Assembly (NCBI GenBank): GCA_963666115.2 | Contig: CAXXET010000003.1 | Location: 1 to 64,000 of the forward strand | Origin: Dehalococcoidia bacterium | GTDB lineage: Bacteria; Chloroflexota; Dehalococcoidia; UBA6926 | Length of the DNA: 64,000 nucleotides | Reading direction: 5' to 3' | Shown: piece by piece, positions 54,370 through 61,675 of the stretch | Numbering within the stretch: the first letter of the stretch is position 1 | How the letters are laid out: each line of letters starts with the position of its first letter | Notes under the pieces: generated by a model | What the model was told of the DNA's origin: nothing | The model's input: the letters and a program-made list of their open reading frames with translations, nothing else | The model's database searches: none | Made by a program: the position numbers and the translations under genes

Positions 54370-55956
54370 ATGACGATCATGGACGCGACGACACAGCACG
54401 CCCACACCCCGGACACCACGCTCGATGGCGGCAGCCTCGACTGCGGCGGCGGCCTCCTGTTGCTCATCCGCCGCGCCATCGACCCCCTCCCCCCCGGCGC
54501 CCTCCTCGAAATCCTCTCCACCGAGCCCACAGTAGAAGTCGAACTCCCAGCCTGGAGCCGCATGACAGGCAACCAACTAATCTCCTGGACAAAGACAAAC
54601 AACCAACGCAGCTTCCTCGTAAGCAAAGGCCCCCTCCGTCACCCCGCCCCCTTCCGTCATTCCGGCGAAGGCCGGAATCCATCCGGAACCCCCTCCGTCA
54701 CCCCGCCCCCCTCCGTCACTCCGCCCCCCTCCGTCATTCCGGCGAAGGCCGGAATCCATCCGGACTCCCCCGCTCACCCTGAGCCTGTCGAAGGGCGCCC
54801 CCTCCCCTCCCTCGCCGTCATGGGCATCGGAAGCTGGCCCCGCCCCCCCTGGATGCTCCGCGCCATCCATGACCACGTCGAAAACCGCATGACCAACGAA
54901 GAGTTCACCGAAACCGCCAACGATGCCGTCCGCCTAGCCATCCAGTCCCAGCGCCGCGCAGGCGTCGAAGTCCTCACCGACGGCGAACAGCGCCGCGACA
55001 ACTACGTCAGCTTCGTCGGCGGCCTCCTGGACAACTCCCAGCTCATCCCCCTCACAGACCTCGCCGCCATGGTCGACGATTCCGAAGAGTTCGAGCGTGA
55101 GCTTGCCGCCCTTGACGTCCCCGCCTCCAGCGTCCGCCACCCCGTCGTCTATGGCCGCCTCCGGCGCGCCGCCCCCCTCGCCGTGCATGAGCTAGAATTT
55201 GCCAGGCAGGTTGCCGACGGCCTGCCCGTCAAGATCGCCCTGCCCGGCCCCTATCTCCTCACCCGCACCATGTGGCTGGACTGCCTCCGCGAAAGCCCCT
55301 ACACCACCCGCGAACAACTCGCCGAAGACGTCGTCCGTGTCCTCCGCGAAGAGACAAAGCATCTCCTCGCCGCCGGCGCCTCCATCGTCCAGTTTGATGA
55401 GCCTGTCCTGACCGAGGTCGTCCACGGCTCCGCCCGCGCCCGCCGCAGCTTCATGTGCGGCGCCCTCAGCGAGCGCTACGACACCAAAACCGAACTCGCT
55501 TTCGCCCGCGAACTCCTCGACGAGGCAACGCGCGGCCTCCCACGCGAACGACTCGCCATGCACGTCTGCCGCGGCAACTGGACCGCCGACGAATCAGCCG
55601 CCCTCACCGGCGACTACGCCCCCCTCATCGACCTCCTGTCCGCCGTCGATGTCGGCACGCTGTTCCTCGAACTGAGCACCGAGCGCGCCGGCGAGATCGA
55701 CGTTCTCGCCAACCTCCCCGATGACAAGCGCATCGGCGTCGGCATCGTCAACCCCAAGTCCCCCCAGGTCGAAGACCCCGACCTGCTGGACGCCCGCATC
55801 CGCCGCGCCATCAACACCTTCGGCGCAGACCGCGTCCTCCTAACCCCGGACTGCGGCTTCGCCACCTTCGCAGACAACCCCGTCGCCTCCGCCCAAATCG
55901 CCGAAGCCAAACTCCACGCCATCACCCAATCCCGCAACCGCGTAACCCCCGCATGA
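54370..55956 (+). CDS. TusA-like domain fused to cobalamin-independent methionine synthase (MetE C-terminal)-like zinc enzyme
   Basis: LDGGSLDCGGGLL..ELPAWSRMTG; IGSWPRP, TDGEQRRD, QFDEP, HVCRGN, PDCGF. Confidence 0.85.
   Translation: MTIMDATTQHAHTPDTTLDGGSLDCGGGLLLLIRRAIDPLPPGALLEILSTEPTVEVELPAWSRMTGNQLISWTKTNNQRSFLVSKGPLRHPAPFRHSGEGRNPSGTPSVTPPPSVTPPPSVIPAKAGIHPDSPAHPEPVEGRPLPSLAVMGIGSWPRPPWMLRAIHDHVENRMTNEEFTETANDAVRLAIQSQRRAGVEVLTDGEQRRDNYVSFVGGLLDNSQLIPLTDLAAMVDDSEEFERELAALDVPASSVRHPVVYGRLRRAAPLAVHELEFARQVADGLPVKIALPGPYLLTRTMWLDCLRESPYTTREQLAEDVVRVLREETKHLLAAGASIVQFDEPVLTEVVHGSARARRSFMCGALSERYDTKTELAFARELLDEATRGLPRERLAMHVCRGNWTADESAALTGDYAPLIDLLSAVDVGTLFLELSTERAGEIDVLANLPDDKRIGVGIVNPKSPQVEDPDLLDARIRRAINTFGADRVLLTPDCGFATFADNPVASAQIAEAKLHAITQSRNRVTPA
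54631..54796 (+). repeat. REP-like cluster in frame as interdomain linker of the TusA-MetE-like gene
   Basis: Two CGTCATTCCGGCGAAGGCCGGAATCC plus CACCCTGAGCCTGTCGAAGGG, read as RHSGEGRNP, VIPAKAGIH, HPEPVEG. Confidence 0.85.
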
Positions 55957-57368
55957 CCTACATACCGTACTCCCCCCCCCGCCCCCGCAACCTCCCCCTC
56001 TCCATCTATATCCACGTCCCCTTCTGCCGCTTCAAGTGCTTCTACTGCGACTTCAACACCTACGCCGGCATCGAAAAACTCATCCCGGACTACGTCGCCG
56101 CACTCACCATTGAAATCCGCCGCTGGCAGAACGCCCTCGAACGCGCCGGCATCCGGCCCCGCATCGAGACAATCTTCTTCGGCGGCGGCACACCCTCCCT
56201 CCTCCCCCCCGCCCAACTCGAAAAAATACTCCGTGCCTTCGTCTCCACCCTGAACTTCCGCCGAGACATCGAAATCTCCATGGAAGTCAACCCGGAAAGC
56301 GTCACCCCCGGCTTCGCCCGTGACGTCATGTCCCTCGGCGTCAACCGCTTCAGCATGGGCGCGCAGAGCTTCAACCCCGCGGAACTCCGCATGCTCGGAC
56401 GCCTCCACGACGAAACAGGCGTCGAACGCGCCATGAACGCCCTCCGCGCCGCCGGCGCCCGCAACGTCAACCTCGACCTCATGTACGGCCTGCCCCGCCA
56501 GACCCTCAAAACGTGGGAATCCAGCCTGTCCAGCGCCTTGGCCCTTAGGCCGGACCACCTCTCCCTCTACGCCCTCACCGTCGAAGAATCGACCCCCTTC
56601 CACGGCTGGGTAGAGTCGGGCCGCCTCCCCTCCCCCGATCCCGATCTCGCCGCCGACATGTACGAACTCGCCGAAAGCCGCCTAGCGCAAACCCGCCTGG
56701 AGCAGTACGAAATCTCCAACTGGGCAAGGCTCGGGCAGCAATGTCGCCACAACCTCGCCTACTGGCTCAACGCGCCCTTCCTCGGATACGGCCCCGGCGC
56801 CCATTCCCACATGTTCGGCGCCCGCTTCTCAATCATCCGCCAGCCCCGCGCATACATCGACCGCATGGTTGAACTCGTAAAGCAGCCCCTCCCGGAATCC
56901 CCCCCGCTGCCCTCCCTGGCCCACGTCGCCGAAATCGACCAAAATGCCCCCTTCAACGAAATGGACGCCCTCGGCCAAACCCCCTCCATCTACTACGAAG
57001 CCGCCCTACGCCAAATCGCCCCCATAGACGCCATCGACCCCTACACCGGCTCGATGCGCCAGGCCGAAACCCTCGTCCTCGGCCTGCGCCTAAACCGCGG
57101 CGTCAACGAACAGGACTACGCAAAACGATTCGGCGCGACGCCCACAGAACTCTTCGGCCCTGCAATCGAACAATCCATCGCCGACGGCCTCCTCGAACGA
57201 ATCGACCCCAGGCCCACCGGTTACGCCTTCCGCCCGGCCGATCCCGACACCCCCCGAGGCCGCGAAAACGCCGCCCGCGGCAAACGCGATGCCCTCACCC
57301 TACGCCTAACCCCAAGAGGCCGCCTCCTCTCCAACGAAGTCTTCCTCCGCATAATGACCACCCCCTAA
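55953..57368 (+). CDS. hemW: radical SAM heme chaperone HemW (HemN-like)
   Basis: IYIHVPFCRFKCFYCDF, FGGGTPS, DLMYGLP, YEISNW, CRHNL.YW. Confidence 0.92.
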   Translation: MTYIPYSPPRPRNLPLSIYIHVPFCRFKCFYCDFNTYAGIEKLIPDYVAALTIEIRRWQNALERAGIRPRIETIFFGGGTPSLLPPAQLEKILRAFVSTLNFRRDIEISMEVNPESVTPGFARDVMSLGVNRFSMGAQSFNPAELRMLGRLHDETGVERAMNALRAAGARNVNLDLMYGLPRQTLKTWESSLSSALALRPDHLSLYALTVEESTPFHGWVESGRLPSPDPDLAADMYELAESRLAQTRLEQYEISNWARLGQQCRHNLAYWLNAPFLGYGPGAHSHMFGARFSIIRQPRAYIDRMVELVKQPLPESPPLPSLAHVAEIDQNAPFNEMDALGQTPSIYYEAALRQIAPIDAIDPYTGSMRQAETLVLGLRLNRGVNEQDYAKRFGATPTELFGPAIEQSIADGLLERIDPRPTGYAFRPADPDTPRGRENAARGKRDALTLRLTPRGRLLSNEVFLRIMTTP

Positions 57369-57369
57369 C

Positions 57370-57628
57370 CCCCTCCGTCATTCCGGCGAAGGCCGGAATC
57401 CACCCCCCACCCCCTCCGTCATTCCGGCTTCCCCCTCCGTCATTCCGCCCCCCTCCGTCATTCCAGCTTCCCCCTCTGTCATTCCAGCTTCCCCCTCCGT
57501 CATTCCGGCGAAGGCCGGAATCCATCGCCCATGTCATTCTGAGCGCAGCGAAGAATCCAAAGCCTCAATTGTGCAGCCCCCGTTCACCCTGAGCCCCCTC
57601 CCCGCTCACCCTGAGCCCCGTCGAAGGC
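57370..57628 (+). repeat. REP-like cluster with short tandem CCCCTCCGTCATTCC units
   Basis: Six CCCTC(C/T)GTCATTCC units, one TGTCATTCTGAGCGCAGCGAAGAATCC and two CACCCTGAGCC units. Confidence 0.88.
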
Positions 57629-57699
57629 CCCCCCCAATAGCCATCCCGCCCCCGCCCCCCTATACTGCCAACACACGTCCACACGCAGCAGGAACCCAT

Positions 57700-57753
57700 A
57701 TGCACGTCATCGGCGCCGCAGGACACATCGACCACGGCAAATCCACCCTCATC
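57700..57753 (+). pseudogene. selB 5' fragment, copy 1 (18 codons, with upstream promoter copy from about 57630)
   Basis: Encodes MHVIGAAGHIDHGKSTLI; upstream CCCCAATAGCCATCCC..TATACTGCCAAC as before intact selB. Confidence 0.85.
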
Positions 57754-57826
57754 TCCACCCCCCACCCCCGTCATTCCCACCAACCGCGTACAATGGTGTT
57801 GACAGCAAACCATCGTGAGGTCAGCC

Positions 57827-58069
57827 ATGAAAGTATCGAAGCGCGGCCAGGTGAACATAGACAGTACCGCAAATCATCAGGCGCGCCACGCATCGGATGA
57901 GCCGCGTGAGGAACTCACTGCCCGCTCCCGCAAAATGATGCAAATCATGGAAGAGCGGAAAAAGGCCGGACTCACGGGCGTCGATGTTGTCGCGGGCATC
58001 CTCGGCAAGAACGCGCTGGGAGAAGGTGTCAGCGTCGATGACTACATCGAGGAGATCCGCCGCAGATGA
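57827..58069 (+). CDS. AbrB/VapB-like antitoxin (possibly degenerate)
   Basis: MKVSKRGQV start and VDDYIEEIRRR end, ATGA overlap with a PIN toxin start. Confidence 0.6.
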   Translation: MKVSKRGQVNIDSTANHQARHASDEPREELTARSRKMMQIMEERKKAGLTGVDVVAGILGKNALGEGVSVDDYIEEIRRR

Positions 58070-58122
58070 TAACGGCGGTGGATACCAACGTCTTCTTGGA
58101 CGTGCTCATCCCCGAACTGCAA
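58066..58122 (+). pseudogene. truncated VapC toxin (N-terminal about 19 codons)
   Basis: MITAVDTNVFLDVLIPELQ then runs into the selB upstream repeat. Confidence 0.7.
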
Positions 58123-58197
58123 GGCCTCCCCCAATAGCCATCCCCACCCCCACCCCCCTATACTGCCAACACACCCCCAAACGCAGCAGGAACCCAT

Positions 58198-58251
58198 ATG
58201 CACGTCATCGGCACCGCCGGGCACGTCGACCACGGCAAACCCACCCTCATC
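58198..58251 (+). pseudogene. selB 5' fragment, copy 2 (18 codons, with upstream promoter copy from about 58121)
   Basis: Encodes MHVIGTAGHVDHGKPTLI; same upstream sequence as copy 1. Confidence 0.85.
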
Positions 58252-58394
58252 CCCCGCCCCCCCATCCGTATCCCCCGCGAAGGCGGGGGTAGCCCACCCC
58301 AACCTCCGTTTTTCCCGCGAAAGCGGGAATCCAGCAGGCGCGGGCCTGTTACCAGTTAAGGGTGGGATGCCGTAGCGCGTCTCGGTAGCAGCTT

Positions 58395-58838
58395 GTGAAC
58401 AAAACAGTCAAGAGGGTGCTGATTTTGCTGGGCGTGGGAGCCCCTGTGATAGCACTGGGTATCGTGTTGAGCAACGTCCCCGTAGATTACCAGCCTTCGC
58501 CGGATACTCCTTCGTGTGATGAACGTTGGACGGTGAAAGGCACCGGGAGCATGGAGCCGGTATTGACAGGAGGGGATGAGGTGTGTTTAGACACGAACAT
58601 CACTCCCGAGGACCTTCATCGCTGTGACATAATTGTCTTCAGAGCGCCCAGTAAGTATATCGCGCACCGCATCGTCGCGAAAGAGAATAGAGAGGGTAAG
58701 TGGCGCTATTGGACACGCGGCGATTTCCAGCCGACTGACCCTTCCCCCGTGCCGTTCGTGAACGTGCAAGGTAAGGTTGTCAACGCGCACAGAGATGAAG
58801 GGTCGAAGGCGCGAAGCCTGTGCGAACAAACCGGGTAG
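58395..58838 (+). CDS. S26 family signal peptidase-like protein (Ser/His type)
   Basis: N-terminal TM, GTGSMEPVL..GD, DIIVF, HRIV, TRGD. Confidence 0.72.
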   Translation: MNKTVKRVLILLGVGAPVIALGIVLSNVPVDYQPSPDTPSCDERWTVKGTGSMEPVLTGGDEVCLDTNITPEDLHRCDIIVFRAPSKYIAHRIVAKENREGKWRYWTRGDFQPTDPSPVPFVNVQGKVVNAHRDEGSKARSLCEQTG

Positions 58839-59063
58839 TTGTCAGGAAGAAGCCAGGCCAACGCTAGGCTAGGTCTAGCTTGCGTTGACGCACTCTTGAG
58901 CCGACGGTCGCTCTGCATCGCGTTCGTGGCGTTGGCAGCGTCCGAGCGTGCGAGCCCCCACCGCTCGCCCGCCAGAGACTTCTGCGCGTCAAGCATCCGC
59001 TCCAAAACTACGTCGAGGGCGACATGGCTGCATTCCGGGCATACAATGGGCGGGAGGCGAGCA

Positions 59064-59735
59064 ATGGCACTCGATATCCACAAGCTGATGCAAGGATTGG
59101 CCAGCCAACGCCCGCTCTTTCATTCGGAGGCGGACTTCCAGCACGCCCTCGCGTGGCACATTCGGGAGGCCCACTCCGAAAGCGCGCCCCGACTCGAATA
59201 TCCCGTCCCCCCTGAGACCACTGCGGACGACGGGAGAAACAAAAGTCCCATCTATCTCGACATCTGGCTCCCCGGGTATCAGACTGCAATCGAGCTGAAA
59301 TACCGCACGCGCAAGCCGGACCCGAATCAGGATTCCCTGGACTATCAGGGAGAGATATTTCGCCTGAAGAGCCAGGGTGCGCAGGACATTGCCCGCTACG
59401 ACTTCCTACGGGACATACACCGCCTGGAGCGTATCGCGCGCCATCAAAACACCCCAGCCAAGGTCGGGTACGCAGTTTTCCTGACCAACGAAAAACTCTA
59501 CTGGGAGCCCCCAGGTAATGTCGGAACCATCGACGCCGACCTTCGCATACACCAAAGCCAGAAGTTGAAGGGAACGGTCGCTTGGGCGGAAGGCGCCAGC
59601 GATGGAACAAAGAAAGGCAGAGAAAAGCCGATCCCGCTCAAGGGACCCTACCAACTGGACTGGCGTCACTACTCGGATGTAGAAGGCACATACGGCAAGT
59701 TTTGGTATCTAGCCGTCGAAATCAGACCAACCTAG
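59064..59735 (+). CDS. hypothetical protein, PD-(D/E)xK nuclease-like
   Basis: FHSEADFQHALAW..LEY..YLDIW..AIELKY pattern; GGAGG RBS. Confidence 0.62.
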   Translation: MALDIHKLMQGLASQRPLFHSEADFQHALAWHIREAHSESAPRLEYPVPPETTADDGRNKSPIYLDIWLPGYQTAIELKYRTRKPDPNQDSLDYQGEIFRLKSQGAQDIARYDFLRDIHRLERIARHQNTPAKVGYAVFLTNEKLYWEPPGNVGTIDADLRIHQSQKLKGTVAWAEGASDGTKKGREKPIPLKGPYQLDWRHYSDVEGTYGKFWYLAVEIRPT

Positions 59736-59821
59736 CCCTGCTTGCCTCCCCGCTCACCCTGAGCCCCGTCGAAGGGCGCCCCCCAATAGCCATCCCCTCC
59801 CCCGCCCTCTATACTGCCAAC

Positions 59822-61675
59822 ATGCACGTCATCGGCACCGCAGGACACGTCGACCACGGCAAATCCACCCTCATCCACGCCCTCACCAGCATCGATCCCG
59901 ACCGCCTCCGTGAGGAAAAGGAGCGCGGCATGACCATCGATCTCGGCTTCGCGTGGCTCCGACTCCCCTCCGGCGAAGAGATCGGCATCGTCGATGTCCC
60001 CGGCCACGAGCGCTTCATCAAGAACATGCTCGCCGGCGTCGGCGGCATCGACCTTGCCCTCCTGGTAATCGCCGCCGATGAGGGCGTCATGCCCCAAACC
60101 CGCGAACACCTGGACATCCTTGACCTCCTCCGCGTCGAGCGCGGCATCGCCGTCGTCACCAAGTCCGATCTCGTCGAACCCGACTTCCTCGAACTCGTCC
60201 GCGAAGAGGTCACCGAGACTCTTGCCGCCACCACTCTCGCAGGCGCCCCCGTCGTCACCGTCTCATCCCAGACCGGCGACGGCCTCCCCGAACTCATTGC
60301 CCTGTTGGACTCGCAGCTACAGGAAACCCCGCAGCGCCCCGACCGTGGCCGCCCCCGCCTCCCCATCGACCGCGCATTCGCCATCTCCGGCTTCGGCACC
60401 GTCGTCACCGGCACCCTCATCGACGGGTCGATCAACGTCGGCGCGGAACTCGAAATCGTCCCCGGCCGCAAACACGTCCGCGTCCGCGGCCTCCAATCCC
60501 ACAAGCAGGCCGAAACCACCGCCGAGCGAGGCTCCCGCACCGCCGTCAACCTGACAGGCGTGGACGTCGATGAAGTCGCTCGCGGCCAGGTTCTCACCAC
60601 GCGCGGCTGGCTGCGAACGACAACCGCCGCCGATGGCCATATCCGCATGGCCGCCAACGCCCCCGGCCCACTCCGCCACAACATGACCGTCACCGTCCAC
60701 TGGCTCGCCGCCGAATCCCTTGCCCGCGTCCGCCTGCTCGATGCCGACCGTCTCCACCCCGGCGGCTCCGGCTGGGTGCAGATCGTCCTCGAAACTCCCC
60801 TGCCCCTCATCAAGGGCGATTCCTTCATCCTCCGCTCCAACGTCGGCACCCTCGGCGGCGGCGAGATCATCGAAACCGACGCCCGCAGACACAAGCGCAA
60901 CGACGCCAAACTCATCGCCCGCCTTGAGGCCCTCAGCGCCCCCGACCCCTCCGAGGTCATCCTCCGAACACTGGACTCCGCCGGCCCCCTCAACCTCGCC
61001 GAACTCGCCCGCCGCTCCGCCCTCTCCGAGGACGACGCCCGCGCCCACGTCGCCCGGCTGGCAGACGAAAGCCTCCTCGTGCAAGTCGGCGATGGCGCAA
61101 ACCGCCTCCTCTACTCCCTCGACGGCTGGAGCGCCGTCAAGGCCGCCGCCGCCAAGCAGCTGGCCGCCTACCACACGTCCTTCCCCCTCCGGCGCGGCGC
61201 GTCGCGCGAGGAGCTCCGCAGCCGCCTCCGCGCCCAGCCCGAAAACTTCCCCGAAATCCTTGCCCTCATGCAGGCCGCCGGCGTCCTGGTCGATGAGGGC
61301 GCAACCGTCCGCCTCCCGGACCACGTACCCGCCCTTACAGCCCCCCAAAAGGCCCTTACGGACGCTTTTAAGAGGTTACTTCGTGAAAAACGTCACCGCC
61401 CTCCAACAGGGGGGTCCATCGACCCTGAGCTATTGGGCTTCTTGACAGATTCGGGGGAGGTAGTCCAAATCGGGGACGGAATCGTGTACGACGCCGAGGT
61501 CTACCAAAACATCACAAACCAGGTCGTCGCCCACATACAAAAACACGGCAAAATAACTGTCTCCGAGACCCGCGATTTGCTAAACAGCAGTAGGAAATAT
61601 GTGCTGCCCCTACTCCAGAGCATGGACGCCCGACACCTAACTCGCCGTATTGGAGACGACCGCGTCCTGGCGTAG
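59822..61675 (+). CDS. selB: selenocysteine-specific translation elongation factor
   Basis: IGTAGHVDHGKS, EKERGMTIDLGFA, DVPGHERFIKNM, C-terminal wHTH SRKY..P.L..D..TRR.GD.R. Confidence 0.95.
   Translation: MHVIGTAGHVDHGKSTLIHALTSIDPDRLREEKERGMTIDLGFAWLRLPSGEEIGIVDVPGHERFIKNMLAGVGGIDLALLVIAADEGVMPQTREHLDILDLLRVERGIAVVTKSDLVEPDFLELVREEVTETLAATTLAGAPVVTVSSQTGDGLPELIALLDSQLQETPQRPDRGRPRLPIDRAFAISGFGTVVTGTLIDGSINVGAELEIVPGRKHVRVRGLQSHKQAETTAERGSRTAVNLTGVDVDEVARGQVLTTRGWLRTTTAADGHIRMAANAPGPLRHNMTVTVHWLAAESLARVRLLDADRLHPGGSGWVQIVLETPLPLIKGDSFILRSNVGTLGGGEIIETDARRHKRNDAKLIARLEALSAPDPSEVILRTLDSAGPLNLAELARRSALSEDDARAHVARLADESLLVQVGDGANRLLYSLDGWSAVKAAAAKQLAAYHTSFPLRRGASREELRSRLRAQPENFPEILALMQAAGVLVDEGATVRLPDHVPALTAPQKALTDAFKRLLREKRHRPPTGGSIDPELLGFLTDSGEVVQIGDGIVYDAEVYQNITNQVVAHIQKHGKITVSETRDLLNSSRKYVLPLLQSMDARHLTRRIGDDRVLA

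Follow-up and report, generated by a model that had tools for sequence, protein, structure and literature searches.

Three selB starts with foreign genes between them in a sponge-symbiont genome look like duplication and insertion scars at a gene-swapping hotspot

The window analysed here is a stretch of 64,000 nucleotides from contig CAXXET010000003.1 of a Dehalococcoidia bacterium (GCA_963666115.2). The host is a sponge-symbiont bacterium, and its genome of 2.07 Mb lies in 9 contigs and is estimated to be 100% complete. Between a hemW-like gene and selB, the selB promoter and codons 1-18 are present in three copies, c1, c2 and c3 (57626-57753, 58121-58251 and 59773-59875), with foreign genes in between. 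The features of this region are as follows.

55953-57368, plus strand: hemW-like radical SAM gene (Pfam Radical_SAM, HemN_C), the left border of the variable gap
57369-57625, no strand assigned: REP-like array of three types (CCGTCATTCC-hairpin units; GTCATTCTGAGC type; CACCCTGAGCC..GTCGAAGG type)
57626-57753, plus strand: dead copy c1, with -35 box at 57638-57643 and -10 box at 57661-57666
57673-57753, plus strand: leader (57673-57699, 27 nt), ATG (57700) and codons 1-18 (57700-57753) of c1
57754-57778, plus strand: joint J1, a copy of chromosome 57399-57426
57779-58120, plus strand: cargo 1, with a decayed AbrB-type vapB (57827-58069) and vapC (from 58066)
58121-58251, plus strand: dead copy c2, with -10 box at 58159-58164 and leader at 58171-58197 (27 nt)
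58198-58251, plus strand: codons 1-18 of c2, with ATG at 58198
58252-58362, plus strand: joint J2, a REP doublet (58252-58331) and a 31-mer (58332-58362)
58395-58838, plus strand: cargo 2a, signal peptidase I of archaeal/SipW type
59064-59735, plus strand: cargo 2b, PD-(D/E)xK-like gene of a large uncharacterised family
59745-59772, no strand assigned: REP element before the live promoter, of a genome-wide family (repeat family D13)
59773-61675, plus strand: live copy c3 and selB, with -10 box at 59810-59815, no leader, and selB at 59822-61675

A search of the host genome with the live selB unit returned exactly three places (E values 1e-48, 9e-21 and 8e-19), in line with the original observation of three copies of the selB promoter and 18-codon start, separated by different genes. 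Only the last copy is intact, as had also been claimed; in c3, the ATG at 59822 opens a gene for a SelB of 617 aa that has the complete set of domains. The selB match of c1 and c2 ends after ...ACCCTCATC (codon 18; CTCATC), and a possible further 7 nt with one mismatch can be read from the alignment of c2. The right ends of the dead copies are sharp and equal at CTCATC and their left ends are different, that of c2 lying inside the 3' end of a REP element. In c1 and c2, 27 nt ending in GCAGGAACCCAT stand between TATACTGCCAAC and the ATG, and c3 has none; the alignment agrees with the claim that both dead copies stop at the same codon and carry a longer leader. The arrangement TAGCCA-17/18 nt-TATACT is kept in all three copies, and 4 promoter-like sites were counted across the region, against 0.5 expected in shuffles. 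The longer upstream stretch of c1 and c3 that had been included in the repeated unit does not belong to it, being a genome-wide repeat element with hundreds of blastn matches. Compared with c3, c1 has 2 changes in 54 coding bases, both amino-acid changing, and c2 has 3; pairwise divergence among the copies is 9-27%. The lineage-specific bases CCAATAGCCATCCC are common to c1, c2 and c3, and AACCCAT to c1 and c2, both being present in none of the 20 genus loci read. Because bases common to all three copies are missing from those 20 loci, we infer that the copies arose within this lineage.

The composition of the cargo is foreign, with a GC of 0.55-0.59 against 0.64-0.69 in the flanks and a GC skew near 0 against -0.25 to -0.5. 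Cargo 1 had been read as an antitoxin plus a truncated vapC, and tblastn matches to the relative G021 bear this out (43% over 81 aligned positions of its AbrB-type VapB, E 2e-15; 52% over the first 21 residues of its VapC). The N-terminal half of the antitoxin looks decayed, and vapC is cut off after about 18 codons, where c2 begins. A Pfam search of cargo 1 gave no match; at the nucleotide level, relatives of it at 78-79% occur elsewhere in G006, G017, G020 and G021. Of the two genes of cargo 2, the first agrees with its predicted identity as an S26 peptidase, and the second is a candidate PD-(D/E)xK-like protein. Cargo 2a scored 58.2 bits against TIGR02228 (cut-off 51.85) and below the cut-off of the Pfam S26 family. 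Cargo 2b encodes 223 aa and has 2712 homologues (best identity 56%); its residues D66, E77 and K79 are invariant. Its predicted model (pLDDT 89) matches mostly the restriction-endonuclease fold, including BglII, at Z scores of 6.2 or lower only, and it had no Foldseek match at E 0.001 or better and no match in Pfam, PADLOC, PHROGs or PDB sequences. Cargo 2 was found in none of 21 relatives, nor was a donor strain found with cargo 2 beside a single selB start.

The upstream neighbour of selB is hemW in 19 relatives within the genus (G015, G011, G004, G003, G013, G007, G021, G014, G016, G009, G002, G005, G019, G008, G010, G006, G017 and G018 among them) and in the sister-genus genome G022. The two genes are 52 nt to 4.4 kb apart. 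The gaps of the genus hold different toxin-antitoxin and restriction-type genes, and the cargo differs among at least 13 relatives. The hotspot proposed at selB is thus real as far as the gap is concerned, which captures varied genes across the genus, but not with the selB start as its attachment site; that reading is unsupported, a single selB start being present in 21/21 other species of the genus, whether their gaps are cargo-bearing or empty. The variation in copy number expected among relatives is likewise not seen, and a lenient search found no decayed selB-start copy in the gaps of 14 relatives. More widely, the selB G1 box is carried by 296/401 class genomes and 283/401 phylum genomes. 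Among box-carrying genomes, a tandem second G1 box on the same contig occurs only in the host genome (G000) and in G330, a member of another family, and the phylum sample adds no tandem selB-start copy. Among 2.9 million viral contigs the G1-box pattern was found in only 1, where it belongs to a full host selB. In G330, 11 nt of the region upstream recur at the joint, and the right end of the dead copy is no more than 3-4 nt (one codon) away from the selB point at which c1 and c2 stop. We put the probability of this coincidence by chance at roughly 0.5-5%, depending on the assumed length distribution, as an estimate and not a computed value. The end point in G330 is not predicted by a non-specific process.

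That REP-like hairpins adjoin the joints, as originally predicted, was confirmed. The array at 57369-57625 corresponds to repeat families D2, D3 and D11. REP-like elements have hundreds of blastn matches and 79 strict hairpin matches genome-wide, also occur across the genus, and share the properties of REP/BIME sequences, namely short palindromic units, many copies and an intergenic position. The REP/BIME-associated RAYT (Y1 HUH) transposase, searched for with PF01797, had no match in this genome estimated to be 100% complete. The element at 59745-59772 is 95% identical over 39 nt to 57597-57635. At J1, the 16-mer TCCACCCCCCACCCCC, followed by CCGTCATTCC, occurs only at 57399 and 57754 on both strands of the 2.07-Mb genome, so that its second copy stands 355 nt upstream in the same hemW-selB gap. 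J1 is a novel joint (57753|57399) in which a segment end is followed by the segment start, as in a tandem duplication; the joint of G330 has the same make-up. To judge from its letters, it is the joint of a tandem duplication or of a circularised local fragment, and not the arm of an element. The REP doublet of J2 recurs at G000:C6:380715-380793 (86%), and the 31-mer together with the REP 3' half has a perfect 46-nt match at G000:C1:16918-16963, which precedes a hicB-like gene. J2 and the upstream region have only an 11-nt C-rich word in common, too little to show a duplication joint at c2|J2. Neither joint provides an element-side arm unrelated to the host, J1 being a host 16-mer and J2 a host REP doublet.

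Consistent with the prediction, the window has no integrase. In the whole host genome, tyrosine recombinases (PF00589) were found only at C4:393394 and C6:475347, which are XerD and XerC-like; no serine recombinase (PF00239), no HUH/RAYT (Y1 transposase) and no recombinase reaching integron-integrase cut-offs was detected, and a six-frame search of the genome found no integrase or integrase remnant besides XerC/XerD. The suggestion that a recombinase or HUH enzyme acts on the array in trans finds no support here, XerC/XerD being all that the genome encodes. In most members of the genus, two tyrosine recombinases are likewise the full set, and none adjoins selB. No Ku was found in the host genome, so any circularisation by end joining would take place without an obvious enzyme.

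Two further foreign inserts in the same genome lie between duplicated host sequences. One, of 3.3 kb with MT-A70 and DndB/DpdB-like genes, has a 119-nt duplicate of the start of trmI at its flank; the other, of 1448 nt with an NYN gene, lies between ftsZ and ispH and is bordered by 84-nt repeats that are 100% identical. These sequences are unrelated to selB, one of them being a terminator region, and the duplications have end points other than that of selB. A single trmI start copy is present in 20/21 relatives with a match and a single ftsZ/ispH unit in 21/21; the empty sites at both loci are collinear, 4/5 relatives giving a single alignment and 1/5 several pieces. Neither the selB array nor trmI has a second, upstream copy of the cargo.

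The array does not look like a new site-specific cassette system; it looks like duplication and insertion scars at a gene-swapping hotspot. More specifically, we see about an even chance that it consists of stacked scars of recombinase-independent insertion-duplication in a flexible, REP-rich intergenic islet. A short promoter-proximal selB piece (REP element, promoter, leader and about 18 codons) would have been duplicated at least twice, and foreign or pangenome DNA would then have occupied the space between the copies. Each event may have been a local tandem duplication, the join later taking up DNA (route a), or a circularised piece of a related strain's DNA, carrying cargo and the selB start, may have integrated by a single (Campbell-type) crossover (route b). 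The second duplication, of 57399-57753, would have broken at the edge of a REP element on either side, at the 3' edge of the first hairpin and at the 5' edge of the doublet after c2. Only products with one intact selB behind a complete promoter would survive, which would explain why every copy has a promoter and a start codon; the equal right ends of c1 and c2 would follow if c1 is a copy of c2. Each dead copy would leave a full selB promoter reading into co-oriented cargo. Points against insertion-duplication are that cargo fills both inter-copy spaces and is absent upstream of c1, that the end point in G330 nearly coincides with that of c1 and c2, that neither a donor strain with cargo 2 nor Ku was found, and that J2 has so little in common with the upstream region.

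It is unlikely, in our judgement, that the copies are decayed tandem remnants of integrase-borne islands that targeted the 5' end of selB, immediately past the G1 motif, and supplied a replacement promoter and first codons, their integrase genes having been deleted. Such islands would account for direct repeats of a target-gene 5' end with a sharp, common right end at CTCATC and differing left ends, for the foreign cargo, and for the nearly identical end codon of the dead copy in G330. The truncation of vapC at the edge of c2 indicates that deletions occurred, and the upstream part of c3 diverges more from c1 and c2 than these do from each other, as an element-supplied copy would. Integration into a gene 5' end is documented for dusA, where, as outlined by Farrugia et al. 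(2015, PMC4482086), islands and prophages with a dedicated integrase use one site in over 200 bacteria. There, too, DNA enters the 5' end of a housekeeping gene, the displaced old 5' end lies upstream and the working one at the gene. The selB array differs in that no integrase lies inside or beside it and none, nor a remnant, was found genome-wide; J1 duplicates sequence of the host chromosome, and the site is single in 21/21 genus relatives, a second selB start being near-unique among the sampled genomes. The tandem G1 box in only G000 and G330 among the class and phylum carriers, the solitary viral contig, the lineage-private bases in the non-coding parts of all three copies and the same pattern at two unrelated sites, one a terminator region, also argue against such islands. 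In the accretion of ICEs with integrase-less cis-mobilisable elements (ICESt1/ICESt3), an att core is recognised by an integrase in cis or in trans. The tandem cargo blocks split by repeated gene ends, some without a recombinase, are alike, but accretion needs an integrase and this genome has none. An integron was rejected, as no recombinase reached the IntI cut-offs and the repeats between cargoes are gene starts, not attC.

We consider it quite improbable that the selB G1-box coding sequence (about codons 17-20) is a recurrent site of breakage or recombination at which repair by unequal joining to upstream sequence, or by capture of DNA, gave duplications with a fixed 3' end and variable 5' ends. 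Three joints from two families do lie no more than about 10 nt apart, J1 and the joint of G330 connect to upstream local sequence, and the live copy retains the site, so that events could repeat. However, c1 may be a copy of c2, leaving only two independent joints; a tandem copy occurs in only 2 of the sampled genomes, and the end points at trmI and ftsZ/ispH are different ones. We know of no nuclease or element that targets this sequence, and none was found here. An assembly artefact joining strain variants would suit a 9-contig assembly of metagenome-like source in which no run contig bridges a whole copy with both its flanks, but it is very improbable, since the copies, differing by 9-27%, are too dissimilar to be collapsible repeats, the sequence at every junction is unique, 57970-58120 and 58328-59215 are found as exact pieces in run X4, and second-study runs hold cargo 2 pieces and one contig across the leaderless joint.

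Recombinase-independent insertion-duplication has partial precedents. Campbell-type insertion-duplication, known mainly from laboratory plasmids, uses a circular molecule with a short homologous segment. It gives the same order of homologous segment, inserted DNA and homologous segment, and leaves the gene intact only if the segment has promoter and start; the difference is that the circles would here need a natural source, which for this symbiont is hypothetical. Shyamala, Schneider and Ames reportedly found in 1990 that tandem duplications of enteric bacteria can be joined at REP elements. The duplication of 57399-57753 likewise has its breakpoints next to REP element borders, but the REP families are others, there is no RAYT gene, and the segments measure only 70-360 nt. 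Transferred genes are known to be switched on when a tandem duplication captures a promoter for them, as introduced in PMC11111574 with the cases of Anderson and Roth 1978, Blount et al. 2012, and Li and Bock 2019. Going by that introduction, such promoter capture resembles the array in setting a host promoter and gene start before a foreign or silent gene, with no recombinase and with microhomology sufficing, but in plain capture another copy of the cargo stays upstream of the dead start, and selB and trmI have no such copy. As a tentative extension, which we hold to be rather doubtful, accessory toxin-antitoxin and defence genes in streamlined, integrase-poor sponge symbionts may enter mainly in a recombinase-free manner, by circularised fragments using short homology or by template switching at replication forks, leaving 70-160-nt target duplications on both sides of the insert. 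A dead gene start would give the newcomer a host promoter, selB, trmI and ftsZ/ispH would be outputs of one process, and the end point in G330 could mark a preferred break at the G1-box sequence. If the reading of the selB array holds, a gene start repeated on both sides of cargo is no proof of an integrase or a cassette system; in the annotation of metagenome-assembled genomes, such a pattern is readily labelled as att sites. The locus alone opens no long-standing question. With three clean cases, for two of which relatives show the empty site, the genome lends itself to a study of how foreign genes settle in small, integrase-poor symbiont genomes.

The leaderless geometry proposed for the live selB was borne out by comparison within the genus and by the genome-wide distribution of TANNNT. 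The TATACT of c3 (59810-59815) starts at -12 relative to the ATG at 59822, with no leader between -10 box and ATG and no Shine-Dalgarno sequence, as in leaderless genes, whose -10 box ends 6-7 nt before the start codon. The leaderless arrangement is real, its geometry is the genome's own leaderless type, and the leader-bearing form of selB is ancestral. The live selB would have lost a 27-nt Shine-Dalgarno leader and would now be expressed as a leaderless mRNA; if so, the locus is a dated natural example of a housekeeping gene passing from Shine-Dalgarno-led to leaderless expression. A contig from run X2, an independent sample, spans the leaderless joint (59805-59979) with 3 other letters and no gaps. 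Across 2011 long ORFs, TANNNT stands at -12 from the start codon in 59 cases, against 5-25 at every other offset, and the live selB matches this offset exactly.

The gap between hemW and selB in this Dehalococcoidia bacterium (G000; 2.07 Mb, nine contigs, with the window at C3:1-64000) measures 2453 nt and contains the selB promoter with the first 18 codons three times. A search of the whole genome returned no selB-start copies beyond these, so the triplication in the original prediction is real. Parts of the region are also present in sequencing runs of sponge metagenomes.

Features of the hemW-selB region in the window (REP, genome-wide short hairpin repeats)
55953-57368, hemW, left border of the gap
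57626-57753, copy 1, dead selB start
57754-57778, J1, sequence right after copy 1
57779-58120, cargo 1, decayed AbrB-type vapB and the first ~18 vapC codons
58121-58251, copy 2, dead selB start
58252-58362, J2, sequence right after copy 2
58252-59744, cargo 2, REP doublet at its head, signal peptidase I gene and gene for a 223-aa protein
59773-59875, copy 3, live selB start
59822-61675, selB, right border of the gap

Every copy retains the arrangement TAGCCA-17/18 nt-TATACT, and in a promoter scan 2.7 kb of the region gave four promoter-like sites vs 0.5 in shuffles. The selB match of copies 1 and 2 ends after ...ACCCTCATC; copy 3 alone runs on as a 617-aa SelB with the full set of expected domains. 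Since tRNA-Sec and SelA are also encoded in the genome, selB is presumably in use. Across the 54 coding bases, copies 1 and 2 differ at five positions, each difference being private to one of them and copy 3 agreeing with the other every time, a pattern that fits a similar age of the two dead copies and their drift away from live selB.

The 25 nt of J1 open with TCCACCCCCCACCCCC, a 16-mer with only two genome-wide occurrences, one at 57754 and the other in the REP array immediately 3' of hemW (57399), and CCGTCATTCC comes next at both sites. J1 is therefore the start of a second copy of 57399-57753. It represents a duplication joint or the point where a local fragment was closed, rather than an arm of a foreign element. 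The interior of this second copy is replaced by cargo 1, up to the REP 3' end before the copy 2 promoter. J2 is a REP doublet that recurs on another contig (C6:380715, 86%) and in other species. If the junction between copy 2 and J2 predates the duplication of 57399-57753, the right breakpoint would be the left border of the doublet and the left breakpoint would lie where the first REP hairpin ends on its right; in that order of events, the equal ends of copies 1 and 2 would need one original truncation only.

Self-comparison of the genome revealed two further low-GC inserts flanked by duplicated host sequence.

G000:C6:267271-271502 (L195:772-5003), trmI insert, 119-nt gene-start copy and cargo
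G000:C9:38288-39903 (L198:389-2004), ftsZ/ispH insert, 84-nt repeats and an insert with an NYN gene

At trmI, the gene-start copy (119 nt, 86.6%, frameshifted) lies 3.3 kb upstream, directly after a 5S rRNA gene, and an MT-A70 methylase and a 769-aa DndB/DpdB-like protein, co-oriented with trmI, are encoded between the two copies. The trmI start is single-copy in relatives (20 of 21 with a hit), and the hypothetical empty site is collinear with four of five relatives as one piece and with the fifth as three pieces. At ftsZ/ispH, 84-nt direct repeats that are 100% identical and have the ftsZ terminator inside them enclose a 1448-nt low-GC insert with an NYN-domain gene. This unit is single-copy in all 21 relatives, and the empty site is collinear in the five loci examined (four in one alignment, one in two). 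Across the genus the unit shows 81-93% conservation, an unusual level for intergenic DNA. The sequences duplicated at the three loci have no relation to each other, and one does not come from a gene start; the process is therefore general rather than site-specific. A locus on contig C1 represents a fourth, less clear case, with 73-nt REP-composite flanking repeats at 97% identity. Two tRNA gene copies (G000:C8:229885-229966 and 231884-231965; 98.8% identity, 2 kb apart, same strand) possibly flank a further small insert in the same manner.

Taken together, the data show local duplication joints, breakpoints at REP borders, no recombinases and, at the sister loci, empty sites in relatives. Two routes could produce such a layout. 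A tandem duplication might be followed by DNA uptake at or near the joint; alternatively, a circularised fragment consisting of cargo and 80-160 nt of target might integrate by a single crossover. The one-step route accounts more simply for the fact that the first copy never carries the insert (copy 1, G330 below and trmI), although the donor or circle is hypothetical. The survivors are those events that left the neighbouring genes intact. The promoters of the dead copies are complete and face co-oriented cargo (three of three genes at selB, two of two at trmI), an arrangement similar to the capture of promoters by duplication that PMC11111574 describes, and we infer that the dead copies may donate promoters to the cargo. 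The locus represents a variant of processes of duplication and insertion that are already known; it is of interest because long duplications recur on both sides of foreign genes in a symbiont poor in integrases, and for a natural leader-to-leaderless switch at selB.

A comparable, independent selB-start duplication is found in G330, a genome of another family.

G330:C1:24644-24900 (L036:1500-1760), minus strand, tandem selB-start copy

The dead copy there reads TAGAAT, 9 nt, ATG and 17-18 codons and then passes into ATGGTTATCAGA, which repeats native sequence 45 nt upstream of the gene's own start; 3' of it follow ~100 nt of REP-like hairpin repeats that are found elsewhere in G330, and then the live gene with a shorter -10-to-ATG spacer. 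This, too, is a duplication joint, as at J1. The dead copy ends no more than 3-4 nt from the corresponding position in G000, a coincidence that a non-specific process does not predict. On a minority reading, the nearly equal end points would reflect a site-specific preference for breakage or recombination where selB encodes its G1 box; the unrelated duplicated sequences at trmI and ftsZ/ispH argue for the general process. In a third family, contigs C47 and C119 of G335 (L035, L040) carry an identical selB start but differ upstream of it, where one contig is full of hairpin repeats; this reflects either strain variation or an unresolved selB-start duplication.

The original prediction had further proposed a gene-capture hotspot that uses the selB start as its attachment site. 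The hotspot part holds for the hemW-selB gap, whose length and genes vary across the genus: it spans 52-74 nt in five genomes, 130 to 1106 nt in six and 1.7 to 4.4 kb in eight. Depending on the species, the gap encodes RHH-PIN, AbrB-PIN and HigBA-like pairs, NYN-domain genes, a PD40 propeller protein, an Eco57I/MmeI-like methylase, DUF559 and a methylase-HNH fusion (higBA and AbrB assigned by eye, the remainder Pfam hits), and no integrase was seen among the listed ORFs. The attachment-site part does not hold, as selB has just one start in each of the 21 genus relatives, and a lenient search for decayed extra copies in the hemW-selB gaps of 14 relatives found none. Variable contents beside a single start indicate that cargo accumulates without duplication of the selB start.

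Wider surveys point the same way. A 30-nt degenerate pattern for GTAGH(V/I)DHGK matched in 296 of 401 genomes of a class sample and in 283 of 401 of a phylum sample, tallies in which four genomes flagged as unpublished are included. More than one match occurred in six genomes of the class sample, where G330 alone, besides G000, has two of them together on the same contig and strand; the double matches in G044, G206, G230 and G335 are paralogues or duplicate strain contigs. In the phylum sample multiple matches were confined to G000 and to the paralogue case G044. Second selB starts would be expected far more often if an element family used this site. Among 2.9 million viral contigs, the single match was a full selB of an unrelated low-GC organism (L044:5092-7360), and an IMG/VR contig with phage structural genes and an excisionase-like ORF ends 650 nt before this selB; the phage-like contig abutting it was not counted as evidence for a phage that targets selB. 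A metagenome scan with GACCACGGNAAANCNACNCTNATC gave 120 loci from many GTPase families (CysN, TypA, IF2, SelB), the pattern being too loose, with none of this genus and no dead copy among them. Among the short contigs assembled in four runs, none spans a whole copy, and none has an informative skip or circle junction; the joints listed for them are REP cross-matches or selB of other species. A literature search found no report of selB as an integration site, 'selb' occurring only in author names.

Six-frame searches of G000 detected two tyrosine recombinases, XerD and a XerC-like protein, and no serine recombinase or Y1/RAYT transposase; Ku was not found in the genome. Most genus genomes have only the two Xer genes, and none across the genus has an extra integrase adjoining selB. 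The results do not support an undescribed cassette system that would act through an integrase or the REP hairpins.

The predicted rewiring of selB initiation fared better. Between TATACTGCCAAC and the ATG, copies 1 and 2 have 27 nt with an AGGAA motif; in copy 3 the ATG lies immediately 3' of GCCAAC. A contig from another study's run covers the TATACTGCCAAC|ATG joint. TATACT of live selB thus stands at -12 to -7, and among 2011 long ORFs of G000, TANNNT starts at -12 in 59 cases vs 5-25 at every other offset, beside a separate, larger class with Shine-Dalgarno-like motifs at -14 to -10. Of 20 genus loci read, 18 have TATACT followed by ~33 nt including GCAGGAA before the ATG and none has the leaderless spacing; the form in copies 1 and 2 is therefore ancestral and that in copy 3 derived. 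This geometry gives good support to the prediction that live selB is leaderless, having switched from a leader-bearing form.

The cargo has a GC content of 0.55-0.59 and no GC skew, compared with 0.64-0.69 and a strong C excess in the flanks. Cargo 1 is recognisable by comparison with the intact vapB-vapC pair of a relative (G021). The signal peptidase I of cargo 2 is of the archaeal/SipW type, and the 223-aa protein belongs to a large unnamed family (2712 homologues, best 56% identity) with an invariant D...ExK motif and weak but consistent matches to the restriction-endonuclease fold. The selB cargo had no match in PADLOC, PHROGs or PDB sequences, and the region gave no hit in Rfam or tRNA scans. 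Cargo 2 was not found in any of 21 other genus species; pieces of it, about 90-97% identical, are present in sponge runs from another study. We considered whether the two ends of cargo 2 share an inverted repeat and discarded the idea, since one end only (the 31-mer) recurs. A 46-nt stretch (REP 3' half and CAGCAGG...TTAAGGG) is identical at window 58318-58363 and G000:C1:16918-16963, ~30 nt 5' of two unrelated cargo genes, the signal peptidase of cargo 2 and a hicB-like gene at the C1 locus with the REP-composite repeats. Also on contig C1, an insertion sequence with terminal inverted repeats (GAGACCTTTGC...) and a short TTTCG duplication sits in a REP hairpin loop (G000:C1:16964-18175), and it targets REP loops. 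At window 54370-55956, a 528-aa ORF has a TusA-like domain (30-86) and a MetE-type catalytic domain (152-503) joined by translated REP elements (..VIPAKAGIH..PAHPEPVEGRP..), representing either an in-frame REP linker or two genes with a REP spacer that is stop-free by chance.
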